Shown: positions 7,687 through 35,567, counted from the first letter of the stretch. The stretch is 64,000 nucleotides of DNA from Patescibacteria group bacterium (GCA_041650915.1 JBAZKE010000005.1:11310-75309); one strand, 5' to 3'. The notes: a model not told the origin generated them from the letters alone. Made by a program: numbers and translations.

Positions 7687-7689
7687 ACG

Positions 7690-8816: not shown

Positions 8817-8848
8817 TTTTTTTTATTCTAACATTCTAAAGAATGTTC

Positions 8849-10637: not shown

Positions 10638-10723
10638 ATGGTACTGTCATTCTGGCCCCGGACAAAGCCACGGAGGGAAAACCCCCCGTAACGCTAATAA
10701 AACTAAACCCGTTACAATAGCCC

Positions 10724-11743: not shown

Positions 11744-11752
11744 GGTGCGTGC

Positions 11753-11781
11753 ATTATAACATAAATCATCACTCTGCTCAA
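11753..11781 (-). promoter_or_regulatory. candidate promoter TTGAGC-17-TATAAT directly upstream of the hydB start (near-leaderless)
   Basis: Minus strand reads ttgagcagagtgatgatttatgttataatgcacgcaccATG. The -10 box ends 9 nt before the ATG. Confidence 0.45.
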
Positions 11782-11792
11782 CATACGTGTTC

Positions 11793-11830
11793 ATAAAAAT
11801 CCCCCACGAAGAAGCGAGGCTCCGCAGGGG
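11793..11830 (-). terminator. intrinsic terminator hairpin after the CHAP/CTD gene (copy 1 of a duplicated terminator)
   Basis: Minus strand: cccctgcggag-cctcgctt-cttcgtggggg followed by ATTTTTAT. An 11-bp stem with G-U wobbles. Nearly identical to 35530..35567. Confidence 0.6.
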
Positions 11831-11865
11831 ATTTGGATGACAGGCCTCCCGGACGGGAGGGAGTA

Positions 11866-15112: not shown

Positions 15113-15820
15113 TTATGTTAGTTTAAGTGTTGAAATTATCATTTCTATAACATCAATTTCACTCGAAAGGTCTGTTGCGGCAAAGTTTTGTTCGTAGGTC
15201 GCGTTGTCCGATAGAGGATAAATGACCGAATACTCTGCGTATAACACCCTATCACCGACTTGTGGAAAAATTGTTGACTCATTTCCTAAATACCATGCTT
15301 TTATTTTACTATCAACGACAACAACGGTAGTAGGCACTTCACGTTCATGAATGGTTACTGGATCACCTGGCACATACTTTCCATTATATGTCACAAAAAA
15401 GTAAGTCCTACTGGTTAATAAATATGAATCATCAACCTTCTTGATACCTAATTCTAACTCTCGATCATTATTTTCACTTGAAAACCTCACAAATTTTGCA
15501 TCGCCTGATAGGTTTGGATTATCAATTAATTCAACATCCTCGACTGTCCACTCGGACGGGATTTTTATCGAGTATCCGTGCTCTTCATTCTCATACGTCA
15601 ACCAGTCTGAGGTATCGATGTCTGAAAGAGTGGCTGTATTTGTGTTCTCGTTTGAATTAGCATCGGTATTAATATTGGTCGCTGTATTCACATTTTCATT
15701 GGTGGCAACAATATTCGTAGTATTCGTATTCCCCTCATTATCCTGAAAAAACAGGAAATACCCGCCAGCCAGGATAATGGCGGCGATGAGGACGCTGACG
15801 ATAAGTGTTGTTTTTGACAT
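15113..15820 (-). CDS. membrane-anchored N/T-rich protein, paralog family member A (possible partner of the adjacent hydrolases)
   Basis: 235 aa. Starts MSKTTLIVSVLIAAIILAGGYFLFFQDNEGNTN, then an N/T-rich low-complexity linker, then DTSDWLTYENEEHGYSIKIPSEWTVEDVEL. Paralogous to 16705..17367 and 31881..32609, and more weakly to 35604..36266. Confidence 0.6.
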   Translation of the reverse strand: MSKTTLIVSVLIAAIILAGGYFLFFQDNEGNTNTTNIVATNENVNTATNINTDANSNENTNTATLSDIDTSDWLTYENEEHGYSIKIPSEWTVEDVELIDNPNLSGDAKFVRFSSENNDRELELGIKKVDDSYLLTSRTYFFVTYNGKYVPGDPVTIHEREVPTTVVVVDSKIKAWYLGNESTIFPQVGDRVLYAEYSVIYPLSDNATYEQNFAATDLSSEIDVIEMIISTLKLT

Positions 15821-16704: not shown

Positions 16705-17367
16705 TTATAGTAATTCAAATGTGCTGACAAACGCATCGTACAATTCTTCGCGTTCTGAAGTGAATACAGGTGCGAATTGACTCCCTGTTGCAATCTGGTA
16801 GTAATATGTTTCTCCAAGCAGAATAGAATTTGCACCAATCTTCCTTGTACCACTTTCCAACTGAGCAGTGGCATTATATCTCCATGCGTCTTTGTTGTTA
16901 ACAGAGATAGTTAAATATTCGTTTTTATCGTTAACAGAAAGAGGCACTCCACTATTTACTAACTCATTTAAAGTATTTGCACCCGCATTGTTGCTTGCTA
17001 ATATCCGAATGACCAGGTCACCTATCGAAAAATTAACAATATACCCCAAATCCTCGTCATCATTGATCCCACTAGTCAACTCTTGATAAGTCGCATCACT
17101 TGGATACTTCACAGAATACCCATACTCCTCGTTCTCATACGTCAGCCAGTCTGAGGTATCAATGTCTGAGGTAAGGGCGTTGACATTAGTATTTTCATTG
17201 TCATTAGTGGCTGTGTTGACATTGGTGGCATTCATATTCTGATTAGCAGCAACAGTATTGGCGTTATTGGTATTATCACCCTCATTATCCTGAAAAAACA
17301 GGAAATACCCGCCAGCCAGGATAATGGCGGCGATGAGGATACTGACGAGAATGGTTGGTTTTGACAT
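16705..17367 (-). CDS. membrane-anchored N/T-rich protein, paralog family member B
   Basis: 220 aa. MSKPTILVSILIAAIILAGGYFLFFQDNEGDNTNN... DTSDWLTYENEEYGYSVKYPSD. The first 30 aa are almost identical to 15113..15820. Confidence 0.6.
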   Translation of the reverse strand: MSKPTILVSILIAAIILAGGYFLFFQDNEGDNTNNANTVAANQNMNATNVNTATNDNENTNVNALTSDIDTSDWLTYENEEYGYSVKYPSDATYQELTSGINDDEDLGYIVNFSIGDLVIRILASNNAGANTLNELVNSGVPLSVNDKNEYLTISVNNKDAWRYNATAQLESGTRKIGANSILLGETYYYQIATGSQFAPVFTSEREELYDAFVSTFELL

Positions 17368-17626
17368 GATTTTTTTTAGGTTAGATGTTAGTTATTAGAT
17401 ACGTATTTATATTATATAACGTATGTACCCAATAACCTACGGCAATCAGCACGAAATTCGAAACTCATCTTGTGGCCATGTTTAGAACATTTGAATTTAA
17501 ATATTTAGATATTGTTTCGAGTTTCGGATTTAGAATTTCGGATTTAATCCCAACATGCCTCCGCAACATATACGTTGGGGAAGATTCGTATCTGCCTCAA
17601 ACCAGCTCTAAAAACCGTCCGTGCCG

Positions 17627-20506
17627 TTAACTCCTTTTTTCCTTTTCAGCGGTTGTGCTCTCCCCGCTGTGCAGCGGAATCAGAACGTTGAACGTTGATC
17701 CCTTTCCAATGCCATCGGACTCAACCCAAATATTGCCTCCGTGCGCTTCGGCGAGCCGCCGCGCAACGTACAGCCCGAGGCCGGACCCGTCGGGGTTGAC
17801 CTGCGCGATGCCGTACCCGCGCACGAACTTCGTGAACAGCTTCTTCGCCTCTTCCGGCTCTATGCCGCGGCCGGTATCCTTAACCGCAAAATGCATATAC
17901 TCGCCGTGCGGTTCGGCGATGAGCGTAACGGACCCCTCGTCAGTGTACTTGATCGCGTTGTCGGTGAAGTTGAGCACGATATCGCCGAGCTTGTCCTTAT
18001 CCGCAAACACAAGCGGAAGCTTTTTCTTCGGTTTGTGAAAAATCAGCTTGAGCTTTTTCTCGTCCGCCGCCTGCTGCACCATCGACATGACCTTGTCGAC
18101 AACCTCCTCAATGTGGACTGGCGTACGGTTGAGTTCGAGCCGCCCTGACTCGATCTTGGACACATTGAGGAACAGGTTGATGATGCGGATCATGCGCTGC
18201 GACTCCTCGAGCAATCCCACGAGTATCTTGTGCTGCTCTTTCGGCACCTTGCCGAAATCACCCTGCAGGATCATTGACAAATAGCCCATAATGCCCGTCA
18301 TCGGCGTCCGGAGCTGGTGTGACGTGATCGATACGAACTCGGATTTAGCCTGGTCGAGCTGCTGCAAATGCTTGTTCGCCTCGCCGAGGTCTTTATTTGA
18401 CCGTTCGAGCTGGCGGTACAGCTCGATGTTCCGCGATACGATGCCGGACTGGTTGGCAAGCGCTTTCATGATAGAGATGTCGGTCGGCTTGATCTGGCCG
18501 GGCTCGTGGGCGAGCAGATAGACAATAGCGCCAACGATTCCCTCTTCCGAATAGATCGGGACGGAAATCACCGTCCGCACCTTGAGCAGCTTCTGCATTT
18601 TCTGTACGATTTCCTCCGGAACGGCTGGCGAGAGAAAGTCGGTAAACTCCGTGCCGATCTGCACCTGGCCTCCCTTAACGGTTTTCACCGTCCTGCTCTT
18701 GCTCGTCGTGTAGTCGCCCCAATACTCGCTCATCGGCTTTGGCAGCAGCCCGAGGGCTTGCTTGATTGGCTGGCTTTGCGTCACCGCATCGGCAAATAGC
18801 CGATGCCGGTCTTTCCCGAGGAAGAGCACGATGCCGCCAATGTACCCGAGCTCGGTCGCGATGCTGTCCGCTATCGTCTGTGTCACTTTATGGAAATCGA
18901 GCGTGCGGGTGATGAGGTTCGTGACGTTCTGCAGCGCTGACAGGAACTTATTCCGCTCCTGGAGCTGCAGATTGGTATTGCGCAGGTCTTCCGTGGAGAT
19001 CGCAACCTCTTTTTTAAGCCGCTCGGTGAACTGCTGGGCTTCTTCATATAACCGCGACTTCTCGAGCGCGGAAGCGAGCTGCGGCCCGATCAGCTTAAGC
19101 AAGTTCAAATCTTCGGAGCCGTACGGATCGCCGGACAGCTTTTGCCCGAGCACCATAATGGCGGTGAGTTCGCTTCCCGTCGTGATCGGCGCGACGATCG
19201 TGGCATCGAGGCCATCGAGCTCTTTTTTCGACTCTTCGAGGCCTTTCCGATCCGCTTCATGCTGCGTATCTTCGATCTTCCGCTCGAGCCCCTCAAGCAC
19301 GACTACCTCCTGCGATGCGCGCATGTACTTCACGAGCGCGCTGTTGTGGCTGATGCGCTGTTTATAATCATGCTGGTCACGTTCCGCGAGTTCAGCCAAA
19401 ATTGCATCGTCAATCTTTTCACCAGTTCCCGGATCGATCCTTCCCCTGCGTTTATAAAAAGCTCCACCCGATGCTCCGGTCAGATAAATGCTCGTATTCT
19501 TTACCTTGAGGTCTTTTTCCAGTTTTCTTGAAAGTGAAAATAAGAGTATATCCAAATCAATTTCGCGATTGATGATTTCGGAAAGATCAGTTAAGAGTTT
19601 TTGGTAGTCAACACGTGCTTTAAAGAAAAGGGTGTCAGTCGCCGCGCCTATCCATTTTTTTAAAGGATCTAATATTAAGACAATAAAAATTGAAACGACC
19701 AGTGCAATTAATAATCTTAGAGGAGTGTTCAATACTGCTTGAGGCAAACTGATTGTCATAACTACCACTGTCGTGGCAATAATAAATACTAGAACAGAAT
19801 AGGTAATAGTGCGTAGCACTACAAAACGAATATCTAATAATCGATGCCTAACAATAGCATAAGACATGAAACCAATCATAAAAACAGAAAAGGATGGACC
19901 GATATTACCAAACTCCACGCTAAAAAATCGAGGCAATATTAAATTTACACTAAAAGCAGAAATGATAAAGAGTATTATTCCCAGAAAAGTATACTTCAAT
20001 TGCAATTTACTCACACCAGATGACTTTCGAAATTTCTTGACAAATAAATACAAGATATATATTACATAGATTGCAGCATATAAAATATAATAATTAACCC
20101 CTGGTCCAAATACATCTCTTGGATCCAAACCTTTAATTACAGCGACACTCGAATCAAGTTTAATTAGAAACGGACTTGTGAAAATCGTGCCTAAAAAAAA
20201 GATTCCTCCCAGAATCAAAATATAAAAGAATACTTTATTTTCTTGCCTATCTCGCCTAGGAAAATTCTTTAAAAAAATTAAAAAAACAATCAAGGCAATA
20301 GTACTAAAAAGGTAAGAAAACTTTACCCAAAGAACATGTTCACCTGATAATCTGGTGATTAGTACCGAACAATTCCACGTGGCAATAAATAACGTTGTCA
20401 ATGCAAACAAACGATTGATAACTGCCCGTTTCCGAGAATAAACAAGGTAGCCAAAAAAAATACTCAATAACGTGGTCAACCCTAAAATGATATTTTCTGG
20501 ATTCAT
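17627..20506 (-). CDS. sensor histidine kinase: N-terminal multi-TM sensor domain, GAF domains, HisKA, HATPase_c
   Basis: 959 aa. About 8 TM helices. H-box SHQLRTPMTGIMGY. G-boxes DTGRGIEPE...GSGLGL. Starts 3 bp after the upstream methyltransferase stop. Confidence 0.85.
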   Translation of the reverse strand: MNPENIILGLTTLLSIFFGYLVYSRKRAVINRLFALTTLFIATWNCSVLITRLSGEHVLWVKFSYLFSTIALIVFLIFLKNFPRRDRQENKVFFYILILGGIFFLGTIFTSPFLIKLDSSVAVIKGLDPRDVFGPGVNYYILYAAIYVIYILYLFVKKFRKSSGVSKLQLKYTFLGIILFIISAFSVNLILPRFFSVEFGNIGPSFSVFMIGFMSYAIVRHRLLDIRFVVLRTITYSVLVFIIATTVVVMTISLPQAVLNTPLRLLIALVVSIFIVLILDPLKKWIGAATDTLFFKARVDYQKLLTDLSEIINREIDLDILLFSLSRKLEKDLKVKNTSIYLTGASGGAFYKRRGRIDPGTGEKIDDAILAELAERDQHDYKQRISHNSALVKYMRASQEVVVLEGLERKIEDTQHEADRKGLEESKKELDGLDATIVAPITTGSELTAIMVLGQKLSGDPYGSEDLNLLKLIGPQLASALEKSRLYEEAQQFTERLKKEVAISTEDLRNTNLQLQERNKFLSALQNVTNLITRTLDFHKVTQTIADSIATELGYIGGIVLFLGKDRHRLFADAVTQSQPIKQALGLLPKPMSEYWGDYTTSKSRTVKTVKGGQVQIGTEFTDFLSPAVPEEIVQKMQKLLKVRTVISVPIYSEEGIVGAIVYLLAHEPGQIKPTDISIMKALANQSGIVSRNIELYRQLERSNKDLGEANKHLQQLDQAKSEFVSITSHQLRTPMTGIMGYLSMILQGDFGKVPKEQHKILVGLLEESQRMIRIINLFLNVSKIESGRLELNRTPVHIEEVVDKVMSMVQQAADEKKLKLIFHKPKKKLPLVFADKDKLGDIVLNFTDNAIKYTDEGSVTLIAEPHGEYMHFAVKDTGRGIEPEEAKKLFTKFVRGYGIAQVNPDGSGLGLYVARRLAEAHGGNIWVESDGIGKGSTFNVLIPLHSGESTTAEKEKRS

Positions 20507-20508
20507 AT

Positions 20509-21219
20509 TTACTCAGCTCTTGCTATAATCAGCTCAAACTGGTCTGAATAGGTGAGGCGGCAATCAATTATATGGAAATTGGTTTTTTCTAAAAGGCACC
20601 TAATATCATTTTGAAAAAAATATCTTAATCGTAAAGAAAAATACCGTCGCTTAATGTTGACGAGAAAGGAAGAAATAATACGAGGATTTCTAATCATCTT
20701 GTTGAGTAACCCGTGCCGTAAATCACTAAAAAATATTTTCAATCTATTCGATCCCTTTCTTGGATAAGTTAAAATAAGTAGTCCCTCTTTTCTTTTCAAT
20801 ATCCGATTAAATTCTCTTAATAACATTTCCGGCGATTGAACATCCCAAATAACGCTCAAGCATACCACGATACTAAAATAATTCTTTTTGAATGGTGTTG
20901 ATGAATCTAAATCGATATTTTGTAAGTGGACCCGCCTACCAAAAAATTTTTTCTCCAAATAACTAATAATCTCAGCTTGGTTATCAATGCCCCAAACTTC
21001 AACATAAGGGAACAAACTTTTAAATCGATCTAGGAAATTTCCAGTCCCAGTGCCCGCGTCAAGTAATCTACTTGCTCTTCTCTTTAAAATGTCACCTCTA
21101 AACTCTCCAATAATCTCGATAATGTCCGACATCATTCGATTATACGAAGGGCTGTTTTGGACAATTAAATCATAGTCGTCTAAATAGCTCGACCAAAAAT
21201 CTTTTTTTTCACTCTTCAC
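20509..21219 (-). CDS. SAM-dependent methyltransferase (class I)
   Basis: 236 aa. The LDAGTGTGNFL glycine-rich motif I. Overlaps the upstream ligase gene by 11 bp. Confidence 0.7.
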   Translation of the reverse strand: MKSEKKDFWSSYLDDYDLIVQNSPSYNRMMSDIIEIIGEFRGDILKRRASRLLDAGTGTGNFLDRFKSLFPYVEVWGIDNQAEIISYLEKKFFGRRVHLQNIDLDSSTPFKKNYFSIVVCLSVIWDVQSPEMLLREFNRILKRKEGLLILTYPRKGSNRLKIFFSDLRHGLLNKMIRNPRIISSFLVNIKRRYFSLRLRYFFQNDIRCLLEKTNFHIIDCRLTYSDQFELIIARAE

Positions 21220-22705
21220 GATTATTTACATACTTATTTTTAATCCCTGAGGACATATTCCCACGAATAAAATCTATAATAATCGGGGTATAATTTATGT
21301 GAGTTACTGCATCTGCAAACTCCCGATTATTTTCCTGGATCTCCTTAGTAATTATTTTTCTAAAATCTTCACGCAAAGATTCCGATCCCTTAATATCCTT
21401 TTTTAATTCTATCAAAATTGAAATTATGGGTTCTTGGTTTTGATTCTCCTTTTTTTCAACAATAAATCTTCCTGTATGATGACGCGCGATGTGTTTGTTG
21501 CTCAAGGCTCCTTTAATATTTTCAATGTATACATTTGCCCCCCTAAAAGTCACCCCTCCGTCACTTCGACCAGCAATCAACAAAAACGGAAACTTCATCA
21601 TCAATTGCAAAGAACCCTCGTAGGTTCCGATAATTTTCTCAATATCGATATCAAACCTCAATAACTCCGTCTTCATTCGCTGAAAAGTTATTACGTCGCC
21701 TAAATCATGGATGTTGTATCTCACCAATGGCGATATCGACCTAGTACTTGCGATGACTTCGTTATTTACAGCCTCAGCAAAAAAATTAATCGGATTATAC
21801 TGAAATAGCATTGGTGTCATATTCGAAAATCTAGAGAAAACCTCGTTTGCCACGGAGTGGTCAGCAAAACAAGCTCTACGAATCTTTATCGAAAGTGGTG
21901 TTTCAAAACCAGTACCTCGACCAAATTCCGTAACGCCATAACTCGATTGAATTCTTTGAATAATATCCCTCTCGTCACTAATTTCTAATAATTGGGCGAG
22001 ATAATCACGAAGTCCCTCAGGAAAGCCTTCTCCTCCGGTATTAATGTATACTTTTATTTTTTTATGAAACCCCAAACGATTCACCTTTTCAATTAAATTT
22101 TTTATAAAGGGGGGGTAACCAGTAATAATAACCTGATCGTAATAAGAAGAGAAAACCTCGAGAATACTAATCACTGTATTTATATCAGGGCCTGGGTTTA
22201 CACTCAAAAGAGAATATCTTTTCTTATACCCAATCTCTTTAATTAAGCGAGACACTTTCTCACCGCTCGGCCAGATACCGAATGCATAGCAATTAATAAA
22301 AAGTGTAGAACGCCTATCTACGTTACCAATAGTACGTAATAAAAACTCAAATTGTTTTCTAGTTTGATAATCTTCCTCCGGAGATCTTAAAAAAAATGTT
22401 GTTGCGCCAGAATAGCCAGAACTTCCTTCTAAAGAATGTGCCCGTTTTATAGCACTCTTAATAGATCTATCGAAAATATTAAACCTACTCAGGTAACTTG
22501 TCTTATCAATAATGGGCAATGCTCGAAATTCCTGGAAGGAATTAATTTTCTTAACCGACGCTCCTTTCTCTTTCAAAAAAATACAATAAGCCGAAACTTC
22601 ATTTATTGTATCATTATAAAGCTTAATAGCATTCTTTATACTATCTCGATGCATATTCCTTATTTTTCTCCTTGCAATAGGAAATAGTAAAGCCTGAAAA
22701 TCCAT
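21209..22705 (-). CDS. adenylate-forming enzyme of the PaaK/coenzyme F390 synthetase-like family
   Basis: 498 aa. GSSGYSGATTFF (P-loop-like), SSYGVTEFG (YGxTE), IAGRSDGGVTFRGANVY (cf. PaaK GRxDDMIIxRGVNVFP). Confidence 0.65.
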   Translation of the reverse strand: MDFQALLFPIARRKIRNMHRDSIKNAIKLYNDTINEVSAYCIFLKEKGASVKKINSFQEFRALPIIDKTSYLSRFNIFDRSIKSAIKRAHSLEGSSGYSGATTFFLRSPEEDYQTRKQFEFLLRTIGNVDRRSTLFINCYAFGIWPSGEKVSRLIKEIGYKKRYSLLSVNPGPDINTVISILEVFSSYYDQVIITGYPPFIKNLIEKVNRLGFHKKIKVYINTGGEGFPEGLRDYLAQLLEISDERDIIQRIQSSYGVTEFGRGTGFETPLSIKIRRACFADHSVANEVFSRFSNMTPMLFQYNPINFFAEAVNNEVIASTRSISPLVRYNIHDLGDVITFQRMKTELLRFDIDIEKIIGTYEGSLQLMMKFPFLLIAGRSDGGVTFRGANVYIENIKGALSNKHIARHHTGRFIVEKKENQNQEPIISILIELKKDIKGSESLREDFRKIITKEIQENNREFADAVTHINYTPIIIDFIRGNMSSGIKNKYVNNREE

Positions 22706-22711
22706 ATTAAG

Positions 22712-23410
22712 TCATAATATTGTTATATTCTTGTGATCATGTCGTAAAAAATGATAAAAAAAGGGATTCAATGTTTTTAACTTTTCATTACTATCGGTAA
22801 TATCATTAATCAAAGTGACAGAAAGACTCTTATCATCGACTCCGTAATATTTGTATGGAAAACTTATAGCACGAAAGCCAAACTGCTTATATCGCTCTCC
22901 ATGCTCTACAGAACATGTAATAACAAAATGAGTAATCCCGTTGTTAATTGCATATATAATTGCTGACTTTATTAAACCCAACGAAACAATTTTATTTCGA
23001 AAATCCTTTTTCACAACAAAACGTGATAACTCTGCATACCTCGCATTATTAGGCATATATTGCTTCACCGTATAATGCTCTTCTGTCAGAACTTGCTTTT
23101 GGTGATTTGGTATGATCCGAATTCCTCCAATTACTTGACTGTGTTGATTTGTGACTACAATTGACGTTGCATACACATCGTATTGGTCTGTCTCCATCTC
23201 GGAAGGATAATCTTCCTTCGGTAAAAATCCCTTCTCTAGACAATAAACTTGATACCTTAATCGGAATAAATATTTTTGCTCATCTTCTTTTGCGATGTGA
23301 AAAGAATACTGTCTCATCCTATAATTAACCACTGGCAGTGAGAATATTAATAGAATTTTCCTTTCAAACCATTTTTGCACATTCATATCACAATTTATAT
23401 CATACCACAA
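22712..23410 (-). CDS. LuxI/FeeM-like N-acyltransferase (autoinducer synthase / N-acyl amino acid synthase fold, GNAT-related)
   Basis: Contains the ...ARYAELSRFVV... motif characteristic of this family, and the N-terminal LFRLRYQVYCLEKGF pattern. The true start is more likely ATG 23317 (MRQYSFHIAKEDEQ..., about 201 aa) than the track's 23410. Confidence 0.5.
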   Translation of the reverse strand: MWYDINCDMNVQKWFERKILLIFSLPVVNYRMRQYSFHIAKEDEQKYLFRLRYQVYCLEKGFLPKEDYPSEMETDQYDVYATSIVVTNQHSQVIGGIRIIPNHQKQVLTEEHYTVKQYMPNNARYAELSRFVVKKDFRNKIVSLGLIKSAIIYAINNGITHFVITCSVEHGERYKQFGFRAISFPYKYYGVDDKSLSVTLINDITDSNEKLKTLNPFFYHFLRHDHKNITIL

Positions 23411-23682
23411 ATTCCTACTTTTTTCAAGTCAGAAAAAACGACAAAACATCAAATACCCTAGTATTTATATGCTCCTCGACTGTGCGAGTTATATTCATAT
23501 GATTTTTCTTTGTATTTTCTGGCGCCTTAATTATAACAAAAACTCACCCTTAAGAAAAGAGGTCTTATTAAAACATCCTTTTTACTTCCTTATCCTCTCA
23601 ACAGCCGGCAAGGCTAAACTCTAATCTTTAAATCCTAAACCCTAAACAATATCAAAATTCAAAATACTAATGTTCTAAACAG

Positions 23683-24042
23683 TTATTTTGATTTTTCCAG
23701 AATTGCCCCAAAAATCTTCATGAGCTCGGTTGATTCCTGGATGAGCTTTTTTCTACTTTCAAATTCTCTCTGGTCAGGTTCAGTAAGTTCTAACCAATAT
23801 CTCCTCTCCTTTGCTTCCTTGCGGCAGATTTTAACGCGCATTATAAAATCCTTCTTGCTTAACGCTTCGTTTGCTTCGATGTAGTTTGCACCGACAGAAC
23901 CTGCTGAACGAACTAACTGTTTTCCAAACTCATAGTGGCTCACGCTCTTTGGTAAGGTTTTGCAGTATCGAGATACACTTCTGGTATAGTTAAGCGTTCT
24001 ATCCTCCAAATCAAACCGTTTTGAATTTTGAATTTCCGTCAT
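23683..24042 (-). CDS. four-helix-bundle protein (23S rRNA intervening-sequence protein family)
   Basis: 119 aa. LVRSAGSVGANYIEANEA.SKKDF..K..IC.KEAKE...WL matches the family signature. Paralog of 26170..26547. Confidence 0.75.
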   Translation of the reverse strand: MTEIQNSKRFDLEDRTLNYTRSVSRYCKTLPKSVSHYEFGKQLVRSAGSVGANYIEANEALSKKDFIMRVKICRKEAKERRYWLELTEPDQREFESRKKLIQESTELMKIFGAILEKSK

Positions 24043-24080
24043 TTGAACTTGTTTAGTATTTCGAAATTAGGATTTAGTAT

Positions 24081-25520
24081 TTAGTGCCTCGTACCAATTC
24101 GTTCCACCGCTTGTTTATACAGCAACGCATTCGCTATTGCATTCGTCATTTGGAACTGAAGTCTGGATAAATACTCCACGTTGTCGGAGGTATATGCCTC
24201 GTTCTTTTTTTTGCGTCCGAACGTGAAAGCGCCGATGAGCTCCCCCTTTTCTCCGATCGGCAACACCATGCTGACCCCCAGCTTTTGTAACGTCGCCTCC
24301 GCATCGAGGAGGAGCTGCTTCTCGCCATTTTCCTCCTCATCAGCCCGGTACGGAATCTCTTCCGTTATCAATACTCCCAGGTGCTCGCGTAAATACTGGA
24401 ATACGGAATCGGTAGGCTCCAGCTCGATGCGCTTATCCTCTTTGTAGTAATTTTCTAGTTTGCCATTCCGTTTATTGAGCCAGATAAATTGAATGTCCTG
24501 CACTTCCAGGAAATCAGCTAACAAAAGTATTACCTTTTTAATCAGCTGGTCAAACTGGACCGAAGACGAGAGTACGATCCGCAGCTTATGCGCCTCTTCC
24601 TGGGCTGATTTTTTCCGTGCGTAGAACACCCTATCAATCATTGTCACTAAAACTCTCCGCAGTGGTTCAACGCTGGTTACAATTATCAATACCAGAATAA
24701 TCGTAGCAGTCTGTTCTTGCCAAGCGTACTGTTCGATCAGTAATCGCTGGAATATTATAAGAAGGTAAATGTATAAAAAAAGTATTATCAATAATGCAAT
24801 AAAATGTACAAACCCTTTGCGGAAAGCGAGTTTGATATCAAGCAAACGGTAACGAAGAATTGCATATGACATCCCAGCCGTCATAAAAATTGTACATAGA
24901 GGTCCGAACAATGATGGCCGTACATCCAGAGAACTAATAAAAAGAGGCCAAATTAAATTTGTGAACACTCCCCCAATAGCACTGATGGCAAAACCAGCAA
25001 TAACATACCTCAATTTTAGCTTTTCAATGGGAAGCGCACTTTTGTACGTTTGAAAAAAATAATAAAATCCGATAAAAAAATAGAGCAGGATATACATGCA
25101 ATAAAATGGGTACCAGGAACCGTAAACGGAACCATTTAAGCCGCCTATAGCATTTTGAACGGACTCTTTAAATACTAGACTTGTTAAACTAAGGCAGCAA
25201 AAAAATATTGGCAGTACTGACAATATAAAATTCTTTTTTATAGGAACTTTTTTCTCCTTTGGAAAATGTAAAACAAAATAAATAAATAAGGGTACAATCA
25301 ACGAAGCAGATACAAATGCTGCTCTACCAGTTATTAATGCCAATTGGCAATCGCTACTAATATTTGAATAATAGCTGCTTCCCACCCAAGCACTCACAAC
25401 AAACGATAAAAAGAAAAAATAAATATTGACCTTCCGCCTCACTCCTTTTAGCAGAACAAACAATCCGAGCGAGATATTCGCCACAACCACAAAAATTGTG
25501 ATAATGCCAAGTAACGTCAT
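24081..25520 (-). CDS. membrane sensor module (multi-TM + GAF) without kinase output; paralog of the histidine-kinase N-terminal half
   Basis: 479 aa. About 8 TM helices ending in ILRYRLLDIKLAFRKG (cf. IVRHRLLDIRFVVLRT in the kinase), then a GAF-like domain. No H-box or ATPase. Confidence 0.65.
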   Translation of the reverse strand: MTLLGIITIFVVVANISLGLFVLLKGVRRKVNIYFFFLSFVVSAWVGSSYYSNISSDCQLALITGRAAFVSASLIVPLFIYFVLHFPKEKKVPIKKNFILSVLPIFFCCLSLTSLVFKESVQNAIGGLNGSVYGSWYPFYCMYILLYFFIGFYYFFQTYKSALPIEKLKLRYVIAGFAISAIGGVFTNLIWPLFISSLDVRPSLFGPLCTIFMTAGMSYAILRYRLLDIKLAFRKGFVHFIALLIILFLYIYLLIIFQRLLIEQYAWQEQTATIILVLIIVTSVEPLRRVLVTMIDRVFYARKKSAQEEAHKLRIVLSSSVQFDQLIKKVILLLADFLEVQDIQFIWLNKRNGKLENYYKEDKRIELEPTDSVFQYLREHLGVLITEEIPYRADEEENGEKQLLLDAEATLQKLGVSMVLPIGEKGELIGAFTFGRKKKNEAYTSDNVEYLSRLQFQMTNAIANALLYKQAVERIGTRH

Positions 25521-26113
25521 TGCTTTCTCCCTTTAAACCCCTCATCCTTACTAATTATCTCTTCCAAAAAATCCCGCAGGAAATCCGCCTTTGTTTTTTT
25601 AACCTTTTTCGACTTCCACTCCAGGTACCGTTCCATGGTCGGCGTGATGCGGAGCGTAAACTTGACCGTCGGCTTTTCCTCGACTCCCCTGCCGGCGCCC
25701 GCCTCACTGAGAAAATCTACCACCTTCTGGTCGAGGTCTTTATTCGTGTACGGCGTCAGCCGGACAAACTCCGGCGCACTCTTCCGGGTCAAGTACCCGT
25801 ATGCGATCTTCTCCGGAGCGCCCTTCTGGTACAGGTACAGGAGCGGCTTTTTCTGCGAGATGGCGTACGCGAGCAAATATCCGATCTCCTGGTCGGGCCT
25901 CGATGCTTCGATGATGATGCAGTCCATCTTGTCGAGCAGGATCTCCCCCGACTCGTTCATCCGCTCGAGGTCTTCCTTCTTGAAATCGGAGTTGTTCTCA
26001 TCGGACGATGCGATGACGAACACGCCGGCAGCGCGCAGCGTCTCGACGATCCGCTTGTAATTCCGGTCGAGTTCGGCCGTAGATATTAATGGTGAGAAAA
26101 AGTATATCCGCAT
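25517..26113 (-). CDS. hypothetical protein, co-operonic with the upstream sensor module (4 bp overlap)
   Basis: A 198-aa ORF. The N-terminal half has an alpha/beta pattern and the C-terminus a short basic helix (KFTLRITPTMERYLEW). No family assignable. Confidence 0.45.
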   Translation of the reverse strand: MRIYFFSPLISTAELDRNYKRIVETLRAAGVFVIASSDENNSDFKKEDLERMNESGEILLDKMDCIIIEASRPDQEIGYLLAYAISQKKPLLYLYQKGAPEKIAYGYLTRKSAPEFVRLTPYTNKDLDQKVVDFLSEAGAGRGVEEKPTVKFTLRITPTMERYLEWKSKKVKKTKADFLRDFLEEIISKDEGFKGRKQ

Positions 26114-26169
26114 GAAAATTTCTAATGAATGAATATCTAATTTCTAGTCAATGAGTACTGTATCAATTA

Positions 26170-26547
26170 CTAATTAACGACTCCTCGATTCGTTGAATGC
26201 ACTATTGCATTGAAAATTAAATTCAGTTCCTTTGCTTCTTGCAGTAGTGGCTGTACTTTTTCTTCTTGAACAGAATCAGCTGCTACAACCATTCGTAACC
26301 AATGTTTTGTTTCACGCGCCTCTTTCTTACAGATTCCGATTTTGTGCTTAAAATCCTTCCTCGATTCAGCATCGTCTGCCTCGCAGTAATTTGCGCCAAC
26401 GCTTGTCGCTGACCGTACGAGTTGAGTAATGAGAGGCCGGGTTACGGAACTCTCCGGGATCTGCCGTGCGAATCCAATAACGGCTCGGCCGAACTTCGCA
26501 GTACGTTCTTCTAAATCAAACTTCTTTGTCATTCCGTCATTGGTCAT
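26170..26547 (-). CDS. four-helix-bundle protein (23S rRNA IVS protein family), paralog
   Basis: 125 aa. LVRSATSVGANYCEADDAESRKDF.HKIGICKKEARETKHWL. Confidence 0.75.
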   Translation of the reverse strand: MTNDGMTKKFDLEERTAKFGRAVIGFARQIPESSVTRPLITQLVRSATSVGANYCEADDAESRKDFKHKIGICKKEARETKHWLRMVVAADSVQEEKVQPLLQEAKELNLIFNAIVHSTNRGVVN

Positions 26548-27582: not shown

Positions 27583-27744
27583 TTCTGTTGGTCATTCTGG
27601 GTCCCGCTTTTCGGGACGAAGAATCTTTATGGCGTAATTGAATGACTTTCTTAAATTATTTCACGGTAGGTTTCGAAACTCCCAGCTTACTCCTTCAGAT
27701 GGCTCCTTCCCTGCCTATGGGCAGGCCCACGCGATGTCGGAAAA

Positions 27745-28010
27745 AAGCATGCCATGGCGAGGAGGAATCCCCTTCTCCCCTCCGCCACTCTGAGCCCACC
27801 GAAGCGCCATCGCGGAAGGCAGGAAAAGAATCCCCTGGCCGGAGGCTTCGAGATCGCCACGTCGCCTTCGGCTCCTTGCGATGACCCAGGGAAAAAGCAT
27901 GTCGTTGCGAGAAAGAATCCCCTTCTCCCCTCTGTCACTCTGACGACGGCGTAAGCCGGAGAAAGAGTCCCCTGGCCGGAGGCCAGGAGATACTTCGCTT
28001 TCGCTCAGTA
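27745..28010. repeat. array of degenerate ~150-bp palindromic repeat units immediately 3' of GIY-YIG gene 1
   Basis: The unit ccctggccggaggcttcgagatcgccacgtcgccttcggctccttgcgatgacccagggaaaaagcatgtc (27831..27902) recurs at 28990..29060 and partially at 29200..29262. The sub-motifs gaatccccttctcccctc.g.cactctga and gtc(a/g)t(t/g)gcgag also recur. Confidence 0.6.
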
Positions 28011-28313
28011 TGACTCGGGGAATAAGTCTTTGCTCAAGTCACGCCACGTGGGATTCAATCCTTTAATGAGCATCACCTTCTTCTTCCGTAACCATCCTTT
28101 GATCTGTTTTTCTCTCGCGATGGCTATTCGTATGTCATCTATTACCTCATAGTAGACAAGCTTGTTTGCATTGTACTTCGCCGTAAAACATTTGTTTACC
28201 TTATCACGGTGCTCATGAACTCGGCGTTGCAAATTATTCGTTACACCAGTATAAAGAACCCTGTTGAATTTATTCGTCATGATATACACGCAGTACTGCC
28301 GTTCCCGTCGCAT
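28005..28313 (-). CDS. GIY-YIG nuclease family protein (UPF0213-like), copy 1
   Basis: Internal start at ATG 28313 (MRRERQYCVYIMTNKFNRVLYTGVTNNLQRRVHEH), the GIY-YIG motif pair, about 103 aa. The track ORF, extended to 28382, would overlap the neighbouring gene. Confidence 0.8.
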   Translation of the reverse strand: MRRERQYCVYIMTNKFNRVLYTGVTNNLQRRVHEHRDKVNKCFTAKYNANKLVYYEVIDDIRIAIAREKQIKGWLRKKKVMLIKGLNPTWRDLSKDLFPESY

Positions 28314-28320
28314 AGGATTT

Positions 28321-28953
28321 TTATACGGCATCAAGGTTCTTCGCCCGCCGCGTCCGCCCAGAACGGCAAACGTAGGCCACAATTACTGCAATAATAACGG
28401 TACTGAATGCCCCGATGGTATTGAGAAGCATATCATTGCCCGTATCTGGCCCGTCGCCAAAACGGTTGCCACCAGTAATCAAATCCTCAATGTACTCTTC
28501 CAGTTCATAAAAAACTCCGAGCGTGGACGCGATCGTGAATGCAAACAAGCCCACAAGCCATGGCGACAGCGCGATCTTTCCGCTTTTTTTCAGGAGCCAC
28601 AGCGCGTTGAATGACAGGAGCGCTGCCATTGCCGTGCCGCACAAATGCCCTGCCTGGTCATACCAGTCAAATTTGTTGTACCAGTGCATCGTATCCCCGA
28701 GAGCGTCAAATGATACGCTGAAAAGCGCTCCGGCGAATACGAACCACGGCAGCGGATTGCCAGTAGACTTTTTCACCCGGTATGAAACAAACTCAACCGC
28801 AAGCCACACGAAAAACGCCGTAACGAACAGCCCGAGCCAGGTGAAGTCGAGCGTGAAATCCAGCACCCCAGCGTAGTTAAGCAATTCAAACGATATCCAG
28901 CCCGCAAATCCGAGCCGCATGGCATTGGTGAGCACTTTGTTTGTCTTTTCCAT
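28321..28953 (-). CDS. hypothetical integral membrane protein (about 6 TM)
   Basis: 210-aa hydrophobic ORF. Its last ~15 codons overlie the conserved leader of the GIY-YIG module. Confidence 0.55.
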   Translation of the reverse strand: MEKTNKVLTNAMRLGFAGWISFELLNYAGVLDFTLDFTWLGLFVTAFFVWLAVEFVSYRVKKSTGNPLPWFVFAGALFSVSFDALGDTMHWYNKFDWYDQAGHLCGTAMAALLSFNALWLLKKSGKIALSPWLVGLFAFTIASTLGVFYELEEYIEDLITGGNRFGDGPDTGNDMLLNTIGAFSTVIIAVIVAYVCRSGRTRRAKNLDAV

Positions 28954-28974
28954 AGTCGATATGTAATTCTATTT

Positions 28975-29290
28975 ATTTGTCACTCTGACCCTGGCCGGAG
29001 GCTTCGAGATCGCCACGTCGCCTTCGGCTCCTTGCGATGACCCAGGGAAAAAGCATGTCATGGCGAGCGAAGCGAATGGTCCCCTGCTCCCTCTGTTACT
29101 CTGAATGAAGAGAAGAATCCCATGACCGATGGTCTGATGATCACCACGTCCCTCCTCCTTCTGTCACTCTGACGACGGTGCAAGCCGGAGGAAGAATCCC
29201 CTGGCCGGAGGCTTCGAGATCGCCACGCCCTTCACTCCGTTCGGGCTCGCAATGACAAAGAAAAACGCAGGTCATTGCGAGGAGGGACGA
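28975..29290. repeat. second array of the same palindromic repeat family, 3' of GIY-YIG gene 2, including an 11-bp perfect hairpin ctcgcaatgac/gtcattgcgag
   Basis: 28990..29060 is almost identical to 27831..27902. 29247..29280 forms a hairpin, ctcgcaatgac-N14-gtcattgcgag. Confidence 0.6.
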
Positions 29291-29300
29291 CGAAGCAATC

Positions 29301-29600
29301 TCATTGGTACCAATCTACCGCTAGGTCCTTCCACTGTTTATTATCCTTTTCAATTAGCTGAACTTTCTTACGTCTCGAGCCTGCTTTCAGTTGCTTCTCC
29401 CGTGCGATTGCGTCCATCGGATTATCAAACACTTCGTAATAAACTAACTTATTAATATTATACTTGCTCGTAAAACCTTTGACTGCTTTTATTTTGTGTT
29501 GGTACACGCGGCCTTCTAAATGACCCGTGACCCCTATATACAAAACCGTATTCGTCTTATTCGTCATAATGTACACGCAGTACTGCCTTTCCTGACGCAT
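29301..29600 (-). CDS. GIY-YIG nuclease family protein (UPF0213-like), copy 2
   Basis: 99 aa. MRQERQYCVYIMTNKTNTVLYIGVTGHLEGRVYQHK. The upstream leader (29612..29660) resembles the leader of copy 1. Confidence 0.8.
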   Translation of the reverse strand: MRQERQYCVYIMTNKTNTVLYIGVTGHLEGRVYQHKIKAVKGFTSKYNINKLVYYEVFDNPMDAIAREKQLKAGSRRKKVQLIEKDNKQWKDLAVDWYQ

Positions 29601-29665
29601 AGGATGTATTCATACTGCATGAGGGTTCTTCGCCCGCGGCACTCGCTCAGAACGGAAAACGTTTT

Positions 29666-31135
29666 TTACCCCACCTTCTCCCCCAGCATTTGCAGCCGTA
29701 TCCGCTCTATCGCGTCGCGGTACTGCAGGGCGCTCGCCAGCGTGTACGTTACCTGGTCCCGCAGCTGCTTAAGGTACTCGACGTCTTGTACCGTATACGC
29801 CTGCTGCTTCTCCCGCTCTCCGAGCGCGATGAGCCCGATGACCTCATCTTCCGTTTTGAATCCCATGATGAGCGACAGCTTCCGTTTTTTCATCTCTTTT
29901 TCCAGCCGCCCGAGCTGCTGCGCATGCCGTTCATCGACTTCACTGATTATGTGGGGAATCTCGTCGCGGACGAGCGGCCGCCAGTGCGAGGAATAATAGT
30001 GGACGAACCCATTGCCCAAATCGAGCGACTCGTGTATGTATTCGTCAGGATGGTACGTAAGCTTGCCCTCCTTGCGATCCAGCAAAAAAAACTTAAGCTC
30101 CTGTATGCTCAAGTATTGTTTAATGTTATTCACAATCACCTCAACGAGCTCATCAATGCCGGTCTTTTTTGCAATCCGCTCCTTCAGCTCTTTTACCGCA
30201 AGATCAATGCTCTTGCGGTCTTTGAAAATGGAGTTGATAAGCCGTTCGATAAACTTCTTGAGCGGCGGAAAACCGAGCGCGACGAGTACTATGAGGATTA
30301 CCGCTGTCCAGGTTGGTGAAACATTCCACGACTCTTCAATATTTGTTTTCAGCAACAGCGCAAGGTATGTATATACCGCTAATGCAATAAAAAGTGAAAC
30401 TCCGTAAACAATACTTTTTCGGACAACGATATGAATATCCATAAAGCGATAACGAAGCATCGCATACGCACTCATAAATGCGAACAAGAACGTTACACTT
30501 ACTAAAGGTGCGTAAATTAATGGCGACAATCTGCTGTGCAAGGCATTGAAAGCACTTGCAAAAAGTGCGCAACTGATAGAGATACTATATCCAATTAGTA
30601 TATACGTAATCTGCATCCTAGTAATCGAATTTGAGTTTTTATATTTTTTGAATAAAATCAAGAGAGGAAACACTAAAAAGTAAACGACTAAAATAATAAA
30701 ATAGATAATATAGAACGTAAGGTCATACTTGGCGACGTTATACTCAACCATCATCATAACCTTGCCAATCAGTACTAGCCAGATGGCGATTAGGATTGGA
30801 ATGAATAATAGAACTGCATAGAATAACTTAATCTTTTTCGACCTAGCCGGAAAATGAAGGCAAAAAAGCGTGAACCAATACGGAATTAGTGGTGCAACAG
30901 CAAAATCAATTTTACTTAGTATGATATGTATGTGAAAAGGAATGGATGCAATCATTTCTAAAAGGGTGAGAAGAACCCAGGAAAATCCAAATAATAACGT
31001 AATAAAAAAAAGAATATAGGTACTATTCTTTTTCCAATTCAAAAGCACAAAGATGAATAGTATAACATAAGCAAGTACGTTAATTGTGGTTACTACTATT
31101 GCTACTTTGTAATCCATATCCTTGCGCCGTCTCAA
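29666..31135 (-). CDS. membrane sensor module (multi-TM + GAF) without output domain; third paralog
   Basis: 489 aa. The TM block ends with AMLRYRFMDIHIVVRKS, followed by a GAF-like region. No kinase motifs. Confidence 0.65.
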   Translation of the reverse strand: MRRRKDMDYKVAIVVTTINVLAYVILFIFVLLNWKKNSTYILFFITLLFGFSWVLLTLLEMIASIPFHIHIILSKIDFAVAPLIPYWFTLFCLHFPARSKKIKLFYAVLLFIPILIAIWLVLIGKVMMMVEYNVAKYDLTFYIIYFIILVVYFLVFPLLILFKKYKNSNSITRMQITYILIGYSISISCALFASAFNALHSRLSPLIYAPLVSVTFLFAFMSAYAMLRYRFMDIHIVVRKSIVYGVSLFIALAVYTYLALLLKTNIEESWNVSPTWTAVILIVLVALGFPPLKKFIERLINSIFKDRKSIDLAVKELKERIAKKTGIDELVEVIVNNIKQYLSIQELKFFLLDRKEGKLTYHPDEYIHESLDLGNGFVHYYSSHWRPLVRDEIPHIISEVDERHAQQLGRLEKEMKKRKLSLIMGFKTEDEVIGLIALGEREKQQAYTVQDVEYLKQLRDQVTYTLASALQYRDAIERIRLQMLGEKVG

Positions 31136-31880: not shown

Positions 31881-32609
31881 ATGCAAGACCAGCCAAACGA
31901 GCCAAAGGAAATGTCAAAAACAACCGCCTGGATTATCCTCGGCGCTATCGTTGTAGTACTCGCAGCGGGAGGATACTACTTCCTGGCGCAGGAAAATGGG
32001 AATACAAACAGTTCAAATGCCGTCACGGTTACGAATACAATGGCGAATGAGAACGTAAATGGATCGATGAATGCAAATACTGAGTTGAATACGAATACAA
32101 CTTCCAATACCAACGAGGTTACGAATACAAATACCGAAGTTGATACCTCAGATTGGCTGACCTACACCAACAGCGAGTATGGCTATACCATGCAGTATCC
32201 CAGTGATTGGACGGTGGAAGAGGTTAAGCTGTCCGAAGATCCAGATAGCCGAGGTAGGATACCACCGTTAAGAGCTGTTAAATTTCGTAACGAGAATAAA
32301 AGGTTCTTATTAGTAATGTATTTGAAACCAATTACTGAACTCGGAACTCCATATATGAGCGCATCTCCTGCATGGGATCAAAGTGAATTCAAAATACAGG
32401 TTGGCCAGTACACCATATCGGCAATTAAAGAAACAAGCGAAGGAAGAATTCAAACTATTTATATCCCTGGACCATCGCAATTGGTACAGCTGGGTAGTTA
32501 CGATTTTGCAGCCTATCTCATTGACTACTCCGATAATGACGCAAGGGATTTATCAAAGAACAATGAGTACTATGTAATACTCGAAATCCTCAAAACCCTC
32601 AACATATAA
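31881..32609 (+). CDS. membrane-anchored N/T-rich protein, paralog family member C
   Basis: 242 aa. A TM helix (WIILGAIVVVLAAGGYYFLAQENGNTN), an N/T-rich linker, then DTSDWLTYTNSEYGYTMQYPSDWTVEEVKL. Confidence 0.6.
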   Translation: MQDQPNEPKEMSKTTAWIILGAIVVVLAAGGYYFLAQENGNTNSSNAVTVTNTMANENVNGSMNANTELNTNTTSNTNEVTNTNTEVDTSDWLTYTNSEYGYTMQYPSDWTVEEVKLSEDPDSRGRIPPLRAVKFRNENKRFLLVMYLKPITELGTPYMSASPAWDQSEFKIQVGQYTISAIKETSEGRIQTIYIPGPSQLVQLGSYDFAAYLIDYSDNDARDLSKNNEYYVILEILKTLNI

Positions 32610-35495: not shown

Positions 35496-35529
35496 CACCG
35501 TCTTTTCCAAGAAAACCTGTCATCCAAAT

Positions 35530-35567
35530 CCCCTGCGGAGCCTCGCTTCTCCGTGGGGGATTATTTT
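35530..35567 (+). terminator. intrinsic terminator hairpin (copy 2) after the CHAP/FG-GAP gene
   Basis: cccctgcggag-cctcgctt-ctccgtggggg followed by ATTATTTT. The inverted duplicate of 11793..11830. Confidence 0.6.

Follow-up and report, generated by a model that had tools for sequence, protein, structure and literature searches.

INTRODUCTION

Phc and, as a second example, CqsA/CqsS are bacterial signalling systems that combine a signal synthase with a sensor kinase. In the Phc system of Ralstonia the gene for the methyltransferase PhcB lies adjacent to that for the sensor kinase PhcS, and the last biosynthetic step is an S-adenosylmethionine (SAM)-dependent methylation giving a methyl ester (PMC8578825). 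We describe here a four-gene cassette of comparable arrangement in a 64 kb stretch of DNA, hereafter the window, from a metagenome-assembled genome of Patescibacteria (candidate phyla radiation, CPR; GCA_041650915.1, JBAZKE010000005.1:11310-75309). Its genes encode, in order, an acyltransferase of the GCN5-related N-acetyltransferase (GNAT) type with FeeM/LuxI fold, a PaaK-like adenylate-forming enzyme, a class I SAM-dependent methyltransferase and a sensor histidine kinase whose membrane domain belongs to the HisKA_7TM family.

HisKA_7TM is a widespread sensor domain for which we know of no ligand; in the literature searched it is mentioned only as a listed sensor domain, and no ligand was found there. 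To our knowledge almost nothing has been established on how the ultra-small CPR bacteria sense partners or hosts, and a conserved enzyme-plus-receptor module offers a concrete handle on CPR sensing that can be expressed in the laboratory. The original prediction, made by a model from the sequence of the window, took the four genes for a previously undescribed small-molecule production-and-perception module, and indeed the literature searched holds no description of a PaaK-like/HisKA_7TM module or of this cassette. We find that the enzyme-kinase pairing recurs in dozens of other uncultured genomes and forms a real, apparently undescribed, candidate make-and-sense module.

RESULTS

Conserved pairing of the PaaK-like enzyme with a 7TM kinase

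Gene neighbourhoods were compared at 171 loci encoding PaaK-like proteins, clustered by identity; the counts refer to informative loci only and include near-duplicate contigs (L002/L003, L004/L005 and L012/L094). Within the window's own PaaK-like clade a 7TM kinase gene is adjacent to the PaaK-like gene in 22 of 30 loci and lies within 4.5 kb in one more. The sister clade has the kinase adjacent in two of its 12 loci and within 4.5 kb in nine, hence in 11 of the 12 at one distance or the other. The two large clades of the family (Chloroflexota, Omnitrophota, DPANN archaea and others; 83 loci) have no such kinase, either adjacent or within 4.5 kb. The difference in adjacency between the window's clade and these two clades (22/30 versus 0/83) is highly significant (Fisher p = 4e-17).

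The genes for the closest PaaK-like relatives (39-47% identity) are directly followed by one for a HisKA_7TM kinase of ~528-573 aa that has no GAF domains. The two genes overlap by up to 11 nt or stand up to 16 nt apart (L001-L005, L012, L014-L016, L093, L094), and the pair, with or without a methyltransferase gene, often shows overlaps of 4-11 nt (L001-L005, L012-L016, L093-L095, L098-L100 and others). Methyltransferase orthologs adjoin the PaaK-like gene, upstream or downstream, in 15 loci, and the methyltransferase gene may stand between the PaaK-like and kinase genes or upstream of both (L004, L005, L013-L016, L095, L098 and others).

The full quartet occurs in the same order on L092, a 3.9-kb contig with GC content 0.25, whose proteins are 37% (GNAT), 47% (PaaK-like), 22% (methyltransferase) and 36% (7TM) identical to those of the window, and sub-combinations occur in more than 30 loci. 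On the 90-kb contig L174 the order is three stand-alone 7TM proteins, methyltransferase, GNAT, a 7TM-GAF-GAF kinase and a single-domain response regulator; the kinase (928 aa, 10677-13463) is 41% identical to that of the window over its full length. L174 comes from a distant relative of the window organism, with enolase 43% and phosphoglycerate kinase 40% identical, and with asparaginase and an adjacent 199-aa protein syntenic. Its three tandem HisKA_7TM proteins (7222-9220, 220-223 aa) fall in GC content at third codon positions (GC3) from 0.55 through 0.40 to 0.29 towards the cassette, and the gene for its 149-aa response regulator (13441-13890) overlaps the end of the kinase gene. A single-domain receiver likewise directly follows a related kinase in L009, and stands two genes after one in L006.

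Among these loci GNAT was seen in the window, L092 and L174 alone; most PaaK-linked loci do without it, and L174 does without the PaaK-like gene. Hence the quartet is a single combination among those that a modular gene set allows. The gene order proposed originally is thus conserved, but the quartet as a fixed unit is not. The conserved core is the PaaK-like enzyme plus the 7TM kinase, with methyltransferase and GNAT optional. Put otherwise, the 7TM kinase is the constant partner, GNAT is an accessory, and the enzymes are a variable short pathway around the activation of a carboxylic acid. Since the nearest PaaK-linked kinases have no GAF domains, synteny indicates that it is the 7TM domain that goes with the enzymes, and not the GAF domains of what the original prediction called a membrane GAF kinase.

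In the sister clade the order is a first enzyme, the PaaK-like enzyme, ThiF, a nitroreductase and the 7TM kinase (L009, L106, L107, L121, L133), where the opening position is taken by an aromatic ammonia-lyase, a Glu/Leu/Phe/Val dehydrogenase or a DHO_dh-type enzyme. Here a second small pathway, unlike the first, appears to be linked to a kinase of the same type. Because ammonia-lyases and amino-acid dehydrogenases make acids from amino acids, an amino-acid-derived acid is suggested. Variants include a nitroreductase fused to ThiF (L133), an added alpha/beta hydrolase (L107) and the response regulator after the L009 kinase. Clustering of neighbours at more distant PaaK-like loci gave only lineage-specific synteny and was dominated by spurious open reading frames (ORFs) in high-GC contigs.

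Layout and transcription of the cassette

ORF calls place the four genes head to tail on the minus strand, from 23386 to 17627 (Table 1), the co-directional arrangement that had been predicted. They are separated by a 6-nt gap (GNAT/PaaK-like), an 11-nt overlap (PaaK-like/methyltransferase) and a 2-nt gap (methyltransferase/kinase). The same 11-nt overlap and 2-nt gap recur exactly at the orthologous junctions of L004 and L005, which supports the GTG start of the methyltransferase.

Table 1. Coordinates in the window of the cassette, its kinase domains, the paralogous receptor genes and the bracketing repeat
Feature	Position	Strand	Details
Promoter-like site	23399..23427	-	TTGAAA, 17 nt, TATGAT, extended -10 TG
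FeeM/LuxI-fold GNAT N-acyltransferase (predicted)	22712..23386	-	224 aa from ATG 23386 (as in the NCBI model); stop at 22712
PaaK-like adenylate-forming enzyme	21209..22705	-	498 aa; NCBI MFA5135401.1, locus tag WC505_06485
Class I SAM-dependent methyltransferase	20509..21219	-	236 aa, GTG start; 11-nt overlap with PaaK-like gene
Sensor histidine kinase	17627..20506	-	959 aa; HisKA_7TM(+2 TM)-GAF-GAF-HisKA-HATPase_c
Kinase membrane sensor module (codons 1-300)	19607..20506	-	HisKA_7TM 3e-14; GC3 0.29
Kinase GAF-GAF region (codons 301-700)	18407..19606	-	GAF and GAF_2 matches
Kinase catalytic core, HisKA + HATPase_c (codons 701-959)	17627..18406	-	Pfam; host-like GC3 0.75
Paralogous HisKA_7TM + GAF protein without kinase domain	24081..25520	-	479 aa; HisKA_7TM 9e-14, weak GAF_2
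Second paralogous HisKA_7TM + GAF protein without kinase domain	29666..31135	-	489 aa; HisKA_7TM 3e-9, weak GAF_2
Inverted-repeat arm A	17479..17546	.	Downstream of kinase stop codon
Inverted-repeat arm B	23615..23681	.	Upstream of cassette; outer end TGTTTAGAAC at 23681

Upstream of the cassette lies a sigma-70-like promoter site, the top-scoring one on the minus strand within 17000-26300, which matches 10 of 12 positions and carries the additional TG. A mechanical ORF call starts GNAT at TTG 23410, giving the 232 aa of the original prediction. This ORF exists, but its TTG falls inside the best promoter-like site, so that ATG 23386 is the most likely start of GNAT. In the scanned region as a whole, 27 promoter-like matches were found against 20.8 +/- 4.2 in shuffled sequence, and the internal ones thus do not clearly exceed what shuffling gives. 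Nor did the scan reveal a convincing terminator within the operon, the sole minus-strand candidate being a weak 5-bp stem inside the PaaK-like gene. Separate transcription from internal promoters, which would have spoken against the predicted unit, accordingly left no sign. Rfam gave no credible match to a riboswitch or known RNA across 17300-24200, including the 300-nt leader.

The three enzymes

GNAT matches the Pfam families FeeM (PF21926, 8e-21, 74.9 bits against a cut-off of 27, residues 49-193), Acetyltransf_5 (6e-16, 59.5 bits) and, more weakly than either, Autoind_synth (PF00765, 5e-9, 36.4 bits against a cut-off of 24). It has a FeeM-like fold, and both the fold comparison and the profile search that had been proposed for it bore out the original assignment. 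NCBIfam does not place it among AHL (acyl-homoserine lactone) synthases at the equivalog level, its scores with the TraI/AHL synthase models being 15-17 bits against cut-offs of 250-292. The best NCBIfam match, TIGR03694 (PEP-CTERM/exosortase-associated acyltransferase), covers only the N-terminal half (residues 42-140) and at 80.7 bits stays below its cut-off of 111.95, which leaves GNAT outside that subfamily.

The predicted ELSRF motif of autoinducer and N-acyl-amino-acid synthases is present as AELSRF and is invariant among relatives. Conserved residues of the subfamily are R44, Y/F48, E65, D67, D70, R90, E119 and R122 (RLRY.VYC.E / E.D..D / R / ELSRF), and the position of the LuxI Trp is occupied by Phe, Tyr or Leu, as in N-acyl amino acid synthases (NAS). 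Because NAS share these residues, the LuxI-type residue set does not discriminate between the two functions for GNAT. An exhaustive HMMER search gave 1307 relatives, five of them at E <= 1e-30. About ten representatives make up the close subfamily; they measure 210-258 aa and all carry a moderately hydrophobic N-terminal extension of ~25 residues, in which, as elsewhere in GNAT, a simple hydropathy scan predicted no transmembrane (TM) segment.

Among solved structures the subfamily profile matches BjaI, RpaI and MesI best (4e-10 to 3e-8), ranking these CoA-dependent enzymes above LasI, TofI and FeeM. This preference for CoA-dependent over acyl carrier protein (ACP)-dependent AHL synthases fits an adjacent ligase that supplies the acyl donor, and the presence of the PaaK-like ligase suggests a donor other than acyl-ACP. 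GNAT resembles small-molecule N-acyl synthases rather than protein acetyltransferases. As judged from its sequence it is a FeeM/LuxI-fold N-acyl synthase, the choice of acceptor (amino acid versus SAM) being beyond what sequence decides. Two remote homologs with the annotation PEP-CTERM N-acyl amino acid synthase, P0125 and P0126, have neighbourhoods unrelated to the cassette.

The PaaK-like protein has no Pfam match. Its family profile matches PaaK2 (2.7e-24), BT_0428 and PaaK1 (range 1e-24 to 1e-19) and, weakly, LuxE (3e-3). An AlphaFold model (predicted local distance difference test score 90.4) shows the two-domain PaaK fold and matches BT_0428, PaaK1/2 and HCL structures at 13-14% identity, with a Foldseek E of 5e-19 to BT_0428 and PaaK1/2. 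The adenylation motifs recognized in the original prediction are all conserved (SSGxSG, YGxxE, RYxxxDxG, GRxDG and the C-terminal Lys489). Their residues S96/G97/S99/G100, Y256/G257, R329/Y330/D334/G336, G379/R380/D382/G383 and K489 show no variation in the subclade and little or none across the wider family. The protein is not a PaaK ortholog: it scores 23.4 bits with NF041878 and 16.3 bits with TIGR02155, against cut-offs of 700 and 646, and no paa genes lie nearby.

The third protein, likewise correctly predicted, contains a Rossmann-type SAM-binding domain, with matches above cut-off to Methyltransf_11, 23, 25 and 31. Its sub-threshold NCBIfam matches are DVU_1556, UbiE, BioC and CpaM. Attempts to derive its substrate from NCBIfam, the PDB and orthologs returned generic matches only.

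The sensor kinase and its paralogs

The kinase scores 53.8 bits with PF16927 (HisKA_7TM; cut-off 28.6), 63.3 with HisKA and 88.9 with HATPase_c. Its predicted length of 959 aa and its GAF domains stand, but the predicted eight TM segments are better given as 8-9 hydrophobic segments, namely the Pfam 7TM domain and two further ones. Residues W44, Q169, N188 and Y216 of the 7TM domain are conserved. The NCBI model (MFA5135399.1) begins inside the gene and, at only 710 aa, lacks the 7TM sensor; the 959-aa form is that of the JGI, Logan and ENA calls, and orthologs support it. Surveys based on the NCBI annotation would therefore miss the association of the enzymes with the sensor.

The two further proteins of 7TM and GAF domains that had been noted as having no output domain are present as described (Table 1). 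Only the one at 24081-25520 lists the PrsK model TIGR02916, at 20 bits against a cut-off of 300, so that PrsK at the equivalog level is not represented. The predicted absence of a nearby response regulator also holds, there being no receiver domain anywhere in the window.

A compositional break inside the kinase gene

GC3 is 0.30 in the GNAT gene, 0.32 in the PaaK-like gene and 0.34 in the methyltransferase gene, and similarly low in kinase codons 1-300 (Table 1). It is 0.69 in the GAF-GAF region, high also in the catalytic core, and 0.59-0.77 in the other large genes sampled in the window. The low-GC3 block thus comprises the enzyme genes and kinase codons 1-~340, inside a genome of GC3 ~0.7. 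The switch from ~0.3 to ~0.75 occurs at kinase codons ~340-375 (window ~19380-19490), where the 7TM domain joins the cytoplasmic domains.

Both kinase-less paralogs in the window show an intragenic GC3 switch too, as do kinases of at least three other contigs (L174, L123 and L137). In L174 GC3 is 0.23 for the methyltransferase, 0.27 for GNAT, 0.08-0.30 for the sensor and 0.56-0.72 for the rest of the kinase; the switch persists there although L174 shares only ~40% identity with the window in housekeeping proteins. The module has host-like GC3 throughout on contigs of high GC, L100 and L103 among them. A codon effect of membrane proteins was rejected as the cause of the low GC3, since the gene for an EamA transporter in the window, a predicted multi-pass membrane protein, is host-like (GC3 0.5-0.64). 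Recent one-off horizontal transfer as the sole cause is weakened by L174, L123 and L137.

The two sides of the break also differ in their relatives. The 7TM domain is 40-42% identical (~150 bits) to that of low-GC PaaK-linked short kinases and 31% identical (86 bits) to that of L174. For the catalytic core the figures are 39-43% (171-200 bits) with PaaK-linked short kinases and 58% (303 bits) with L174, and the GAF-GAF region has a match, at 37% identity, in L174 only. The simplest reading is that enzyme genes and sensor domain were replaced together, in frame, on a resident GAF/kinase chassis. Such co-inheritance would be indirect but independent support for a functional tie of the enzymes to the 7TM domain. 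The sensor/kinase break seen in several genomes would then show plainly, in nature, how a sensor domain can be exchanged along with the genes for ligand synthesis.

Flanking repeats and neighbouring genes

The four-gene cassette is exactly enclosed (17479-23681, 6.2 kb) by the two arms of an imperfect inverted repeat of 68 nt, which are ~78% identical and have the outer ends TGTTTAGAAC. The window has only its two copies, against ~0 expected by chance, and the repeat is absent from all fetched loci. No transposase was seen within the bracketed segment, nor was there an obvious target-site duplication.

The whole cassette is further enclosed by an inverted repeat of ~250 nt, 90-96% complementary, with arms at 11795-12045 and 35316-35565, 23 kb apart. 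These arms cover the C-terminal ends and downstream regions of two large surface proteins of 1055 aa and 936 aa, the latter with CHAP, FG-GAP and Por_Secre_tail domains.

Between the receptor genes lie two genes for '23S rRNA intervening sequence proteins' (four-helix bundles; 23683-24042 and 26170-26547), which are 71% identical over a 52-nt stretch; short inverted repeats, rich in AT, lie on either side of the first. The second 7TM-GAF paralog adjoins a duplicated segment (27739-29662) that resembles mobile elements of homing-endonuclease type, with GIY-YIG domain ORFs at 28382..28005 and 29600..29301. Flanks of these ORFs are repeated at 81-97% identity (27833-27911/28989-29067, 27921-27991/29150-29220 and 28320-28373/29609-29662).

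Two other features were noted. The genes at 15113-15820, 16705-17367 and 31881-32609 encode a small family of low-GC3 proteins that share a DIDTSDWLTYENEE motif and have a hydrophobic segment at the N-terminus and a region rich in Asn and Thr; the first two genes are 86-91% identical in DNA over their 5' ends and upstream regions. A repeat-rich ORF of 2516 aa (54636-62186) is followed downstream by three tandem repeats of ~90 nt (62868-63107, 76-94% identity), each with the GC-rich palindrome CCCCTCCTCATAAAGAGGAGG.

DISCUSSION

We read the region as one operon coupling a short acyl-amide pathway to a membrane sensor kinase, a reading to which we give somewhat less than even confidence. Its observed basis consists of the operon-like packing, the protein families and folds, the clade-specific repeated adjacency and the compositional and phylogenetic evidence for co-inheritance of enzymes and sensor. 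For the substrate, the product, the release of that product and the role of the 7TM domain as receptor, it is the gene context that speaks. Of the production-and-perception module originally proposed, the enzyme-kinase adjacency is conserved, while perception of the signal by the kinase is an inference from gene context.

The most likely product of the enzymes is an acyl-amide, which may be methylated and which the 7TM domain would sense. The PaaK-like enzyme would use ATP to convert a free carboxylic acid, probably small, aryl or amino-acid-derived, to an acyl-adenylate and probably on to a thioester. A membrane-associated GNAT would move the acyl group to an amine, an amino acid or, as the less likely choice, SAM with its amino group, the acceptor that AHL synthases use. 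Capping by the methyltransferase, for instance to a methyl ester, would then yield a neutral N-acyl amide or ester. This product would be bound in the membrane by the 7TM domain of the co-transcribed kinase, and the signal relayed through GAF-GAF and HisKA/HATPase to a single-domain response regulator encoded elsewhere.

Several points weigh against this reading. The window contains neither an exporter nor a response regulator. The methyltransferase and five orthologs are below cut-off for every substrate-specific NCBIfam model and can be called class I only in a generic sense. The L174 cluster has GNAT and methyltransferase genes but no PaaK-like gene; conversely, at most PaaK-linked loci GNAT is missing, so that the 'signal' there would have to be something else, and we know of no PaaK-type enzyme that makes an amide by itself. 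The locus numbers, moreover, would be slightly lower if the near-duplicate contigs were counted once.

The same genes might instead process a ligand, the 7TM kinase detecting an exogenous (e.g. host-derived) carboxylic acid or lipid and the enzymes activating, conjugating and methylating that compound for assimilation or detoxification; or the PaaK-like protein might be a cytoplasmic co-sensor bound to the kinase. The invariant pair is after all one acid-activating enzyme and a kinase, often translationally coupled through overlaps of 4-11 nt, the accessory enzymes differ between loci, and CPR bacteria are generally thought to depend on host metabolites. Yet the cassette has no downstream genes for catabolism or lipid assembly, L174 keeps GNAT and methyltransferase in the absence of the PaaK-like enzyme, and the acid of the sister clade is apparently made in situ from an amino acid, which points to biosynthesis rather than uptake. 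We consider ligand processing or co-sensing somewhat unlikely. Membrane aminolipid synthesis or remodelling, which we judge improbable, would have the PaaK-like enzyme activate scavenged fatty acids, an OlsB/NAS-like GNAT make N-acyl amino acid lipids, the methyltransferase methylate the head group and the kinase monitor the state of the membrane. The nearest solved relatives of the PaaK-like enzyme (PaaK, BT_0428, HCL) act on small aryl or short acids and not on long-chain ones, and most loci have no GNAT. Such a pathway would agree with weak matches of GNAT to OlsB (1.5e-6) and to the long-chain N-acyl amino acid synthase family TIGR03694, with the hydrophobic N-terminal extension of its subfamily (though no TM segment is predicted), and with weak matches of methyltransferase orthologs to PmtA, CFA-synthase and fatty-acid O-methyltransferase; these lipid-related matches, however, are all far below the family cut-offs. 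Characterized relatives make N-acyl ornithine and lysine (PMC9762135).

Covalent protein modification is very improbable in our estimate. The PaaK-like enzyme, GNAT or both would acylate the kinase, a regulator or another protein, on the model of LuxE-type acyl-protein synthetases or of the attachment of a chromophore by a CoA ligase in photoactive yellow protein. Synthesis of that chromophore pairs an aromatic ammonia-lyase with a ligase, as one sister-clade locus does, and both the weak LuxE match of the PaaK-like profile and the tight translational coupling of the PaaK-like and kinase genes would be in keeping with protein acylation. But GNAT looks to be of the small-molecule and not the protein-acetylating kind, no conserved Cys or Lys acceptor was identified, and the nearest PaaK-linked kinases have no GAF or PAS domain that could carry a chromophore. 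The genes might, finally, share no function at all, their proximity being inherited or due to passive carriage on an AT-rich mobile island. In favour of this, the composition of the cassette is foreign, the 68-nt inverted repeat brackets it, and in the tightest subclade the surrounding dnaE...thrS context is conserved as well. Against mere linkage, the adjacency is kept across PaaK-like proteins only 28-35% identical, in different genomic contexts on contigs of GC 0.25-0.64 and despite shuffled methyltransferase positions, and it is absent from other clades of the same enzyme family. Coincidental linkage is thereby already disfavoured, and we rate it as hardly credible. A role in anti-phage defence was rejected, PADLOC having given generic methyltransferase and ATPase matches only.

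If the genes do form an acyl-amide pathway with its own sensor kinase, a bolder extension can be entertained, which we think unlikely to hold as a whole. Bacteria of the CPR/Patescibacteria and of some other uncultured lineages would speak private chemical 'dialects', each set by a cassette of one to three enzymes for acyl activation, acyl transfer and methylation and a matching HisKA_7TM sensor domain. Such cassettes would pass horizontally as wholes and join, by in-frame recombination, to the GAF/kinase part already present, so that the specificities of signal and receptor would change at one stroke. Their products would make up a new class of autoinducers, N-acyl amides or esters, in organisms with no known cell-cell signalling chemistry. 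At a more practical level, the linked enzymes narrow the search for HisKA_7TM ligands to amides and esters derived from acyl-adenylates or thioesters, and a NAS/LuxI-fold acyltransferase that comes with a methyltransferase and an acid-activating ligase of its own suggests how molecules of the N-acyl amino acid ester type could be made.

Comparison with known systems

GNAT shares its fold and the motif set R..F / E.D..D / R / E.SR with BjaI, RpaI and MesI, which need an acyl-CoA donor made by a ligase. It differs from LuxI types in having F, Y or L at the Trp position and in the Pfam ranking of FeeM above Autoind_synth. The cassette departs from LuxI systems in its kinase partner and its added methyltransferase, with no LuxR-type regulator among the adjacent genes scanned.

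A NAS-type acyltransferase together with a 7TM-GAF kinase is also found in Proteobacteria, as the PEP-CTERM-associated acyltransferase and PrsK (PMC1569441). GNAT differs from the FeeM/TIGR03694 synthases in scoring below cut-off, in matching over the N-terminal half only and in having no insertion of ~30 aa. Among the genes scanned here there is no exosortase or PrsR, and the acyl donor would presumably come from the PaaK-like ligase rather than from ACP.

With the PaaK branch of the ANL superfamily (BT_0428, HCL, LuxE, F390 synthetase) the PaaK-like enzyme shares fold, domain order and adenylation motifs; it is set apart from PaaK by an identity of 13-14%, by the absence of paa catabolic genes and by a clade tied to a sensor kinase. 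On the chemical side, N-acylated amino acid methyl esters (NAMEs) are natural AHL analogues whose biosynthetic genes are unidentified (PMC11580390, PMC4582587), and the likeness of the proposed product to them is a chemical analogy only.

In Phc and Cqs, as in the cassette, a synthase gene is adjacent to and co-oriented with that of a multi-TM sensor histidine kinase, and in those systems the kinase perceives the hydrophobic product. The cassette differs in its PaaK-like ligase, its NAS/LuxI-fold GNAT, its generic methyltransferase, its HisKA_7TM kinase and its CPR host. The resemblance is one of arrangement: its biosynthetic genes stand next to a multi-TM kinase gene in the same orientation, and they do so across genomes.

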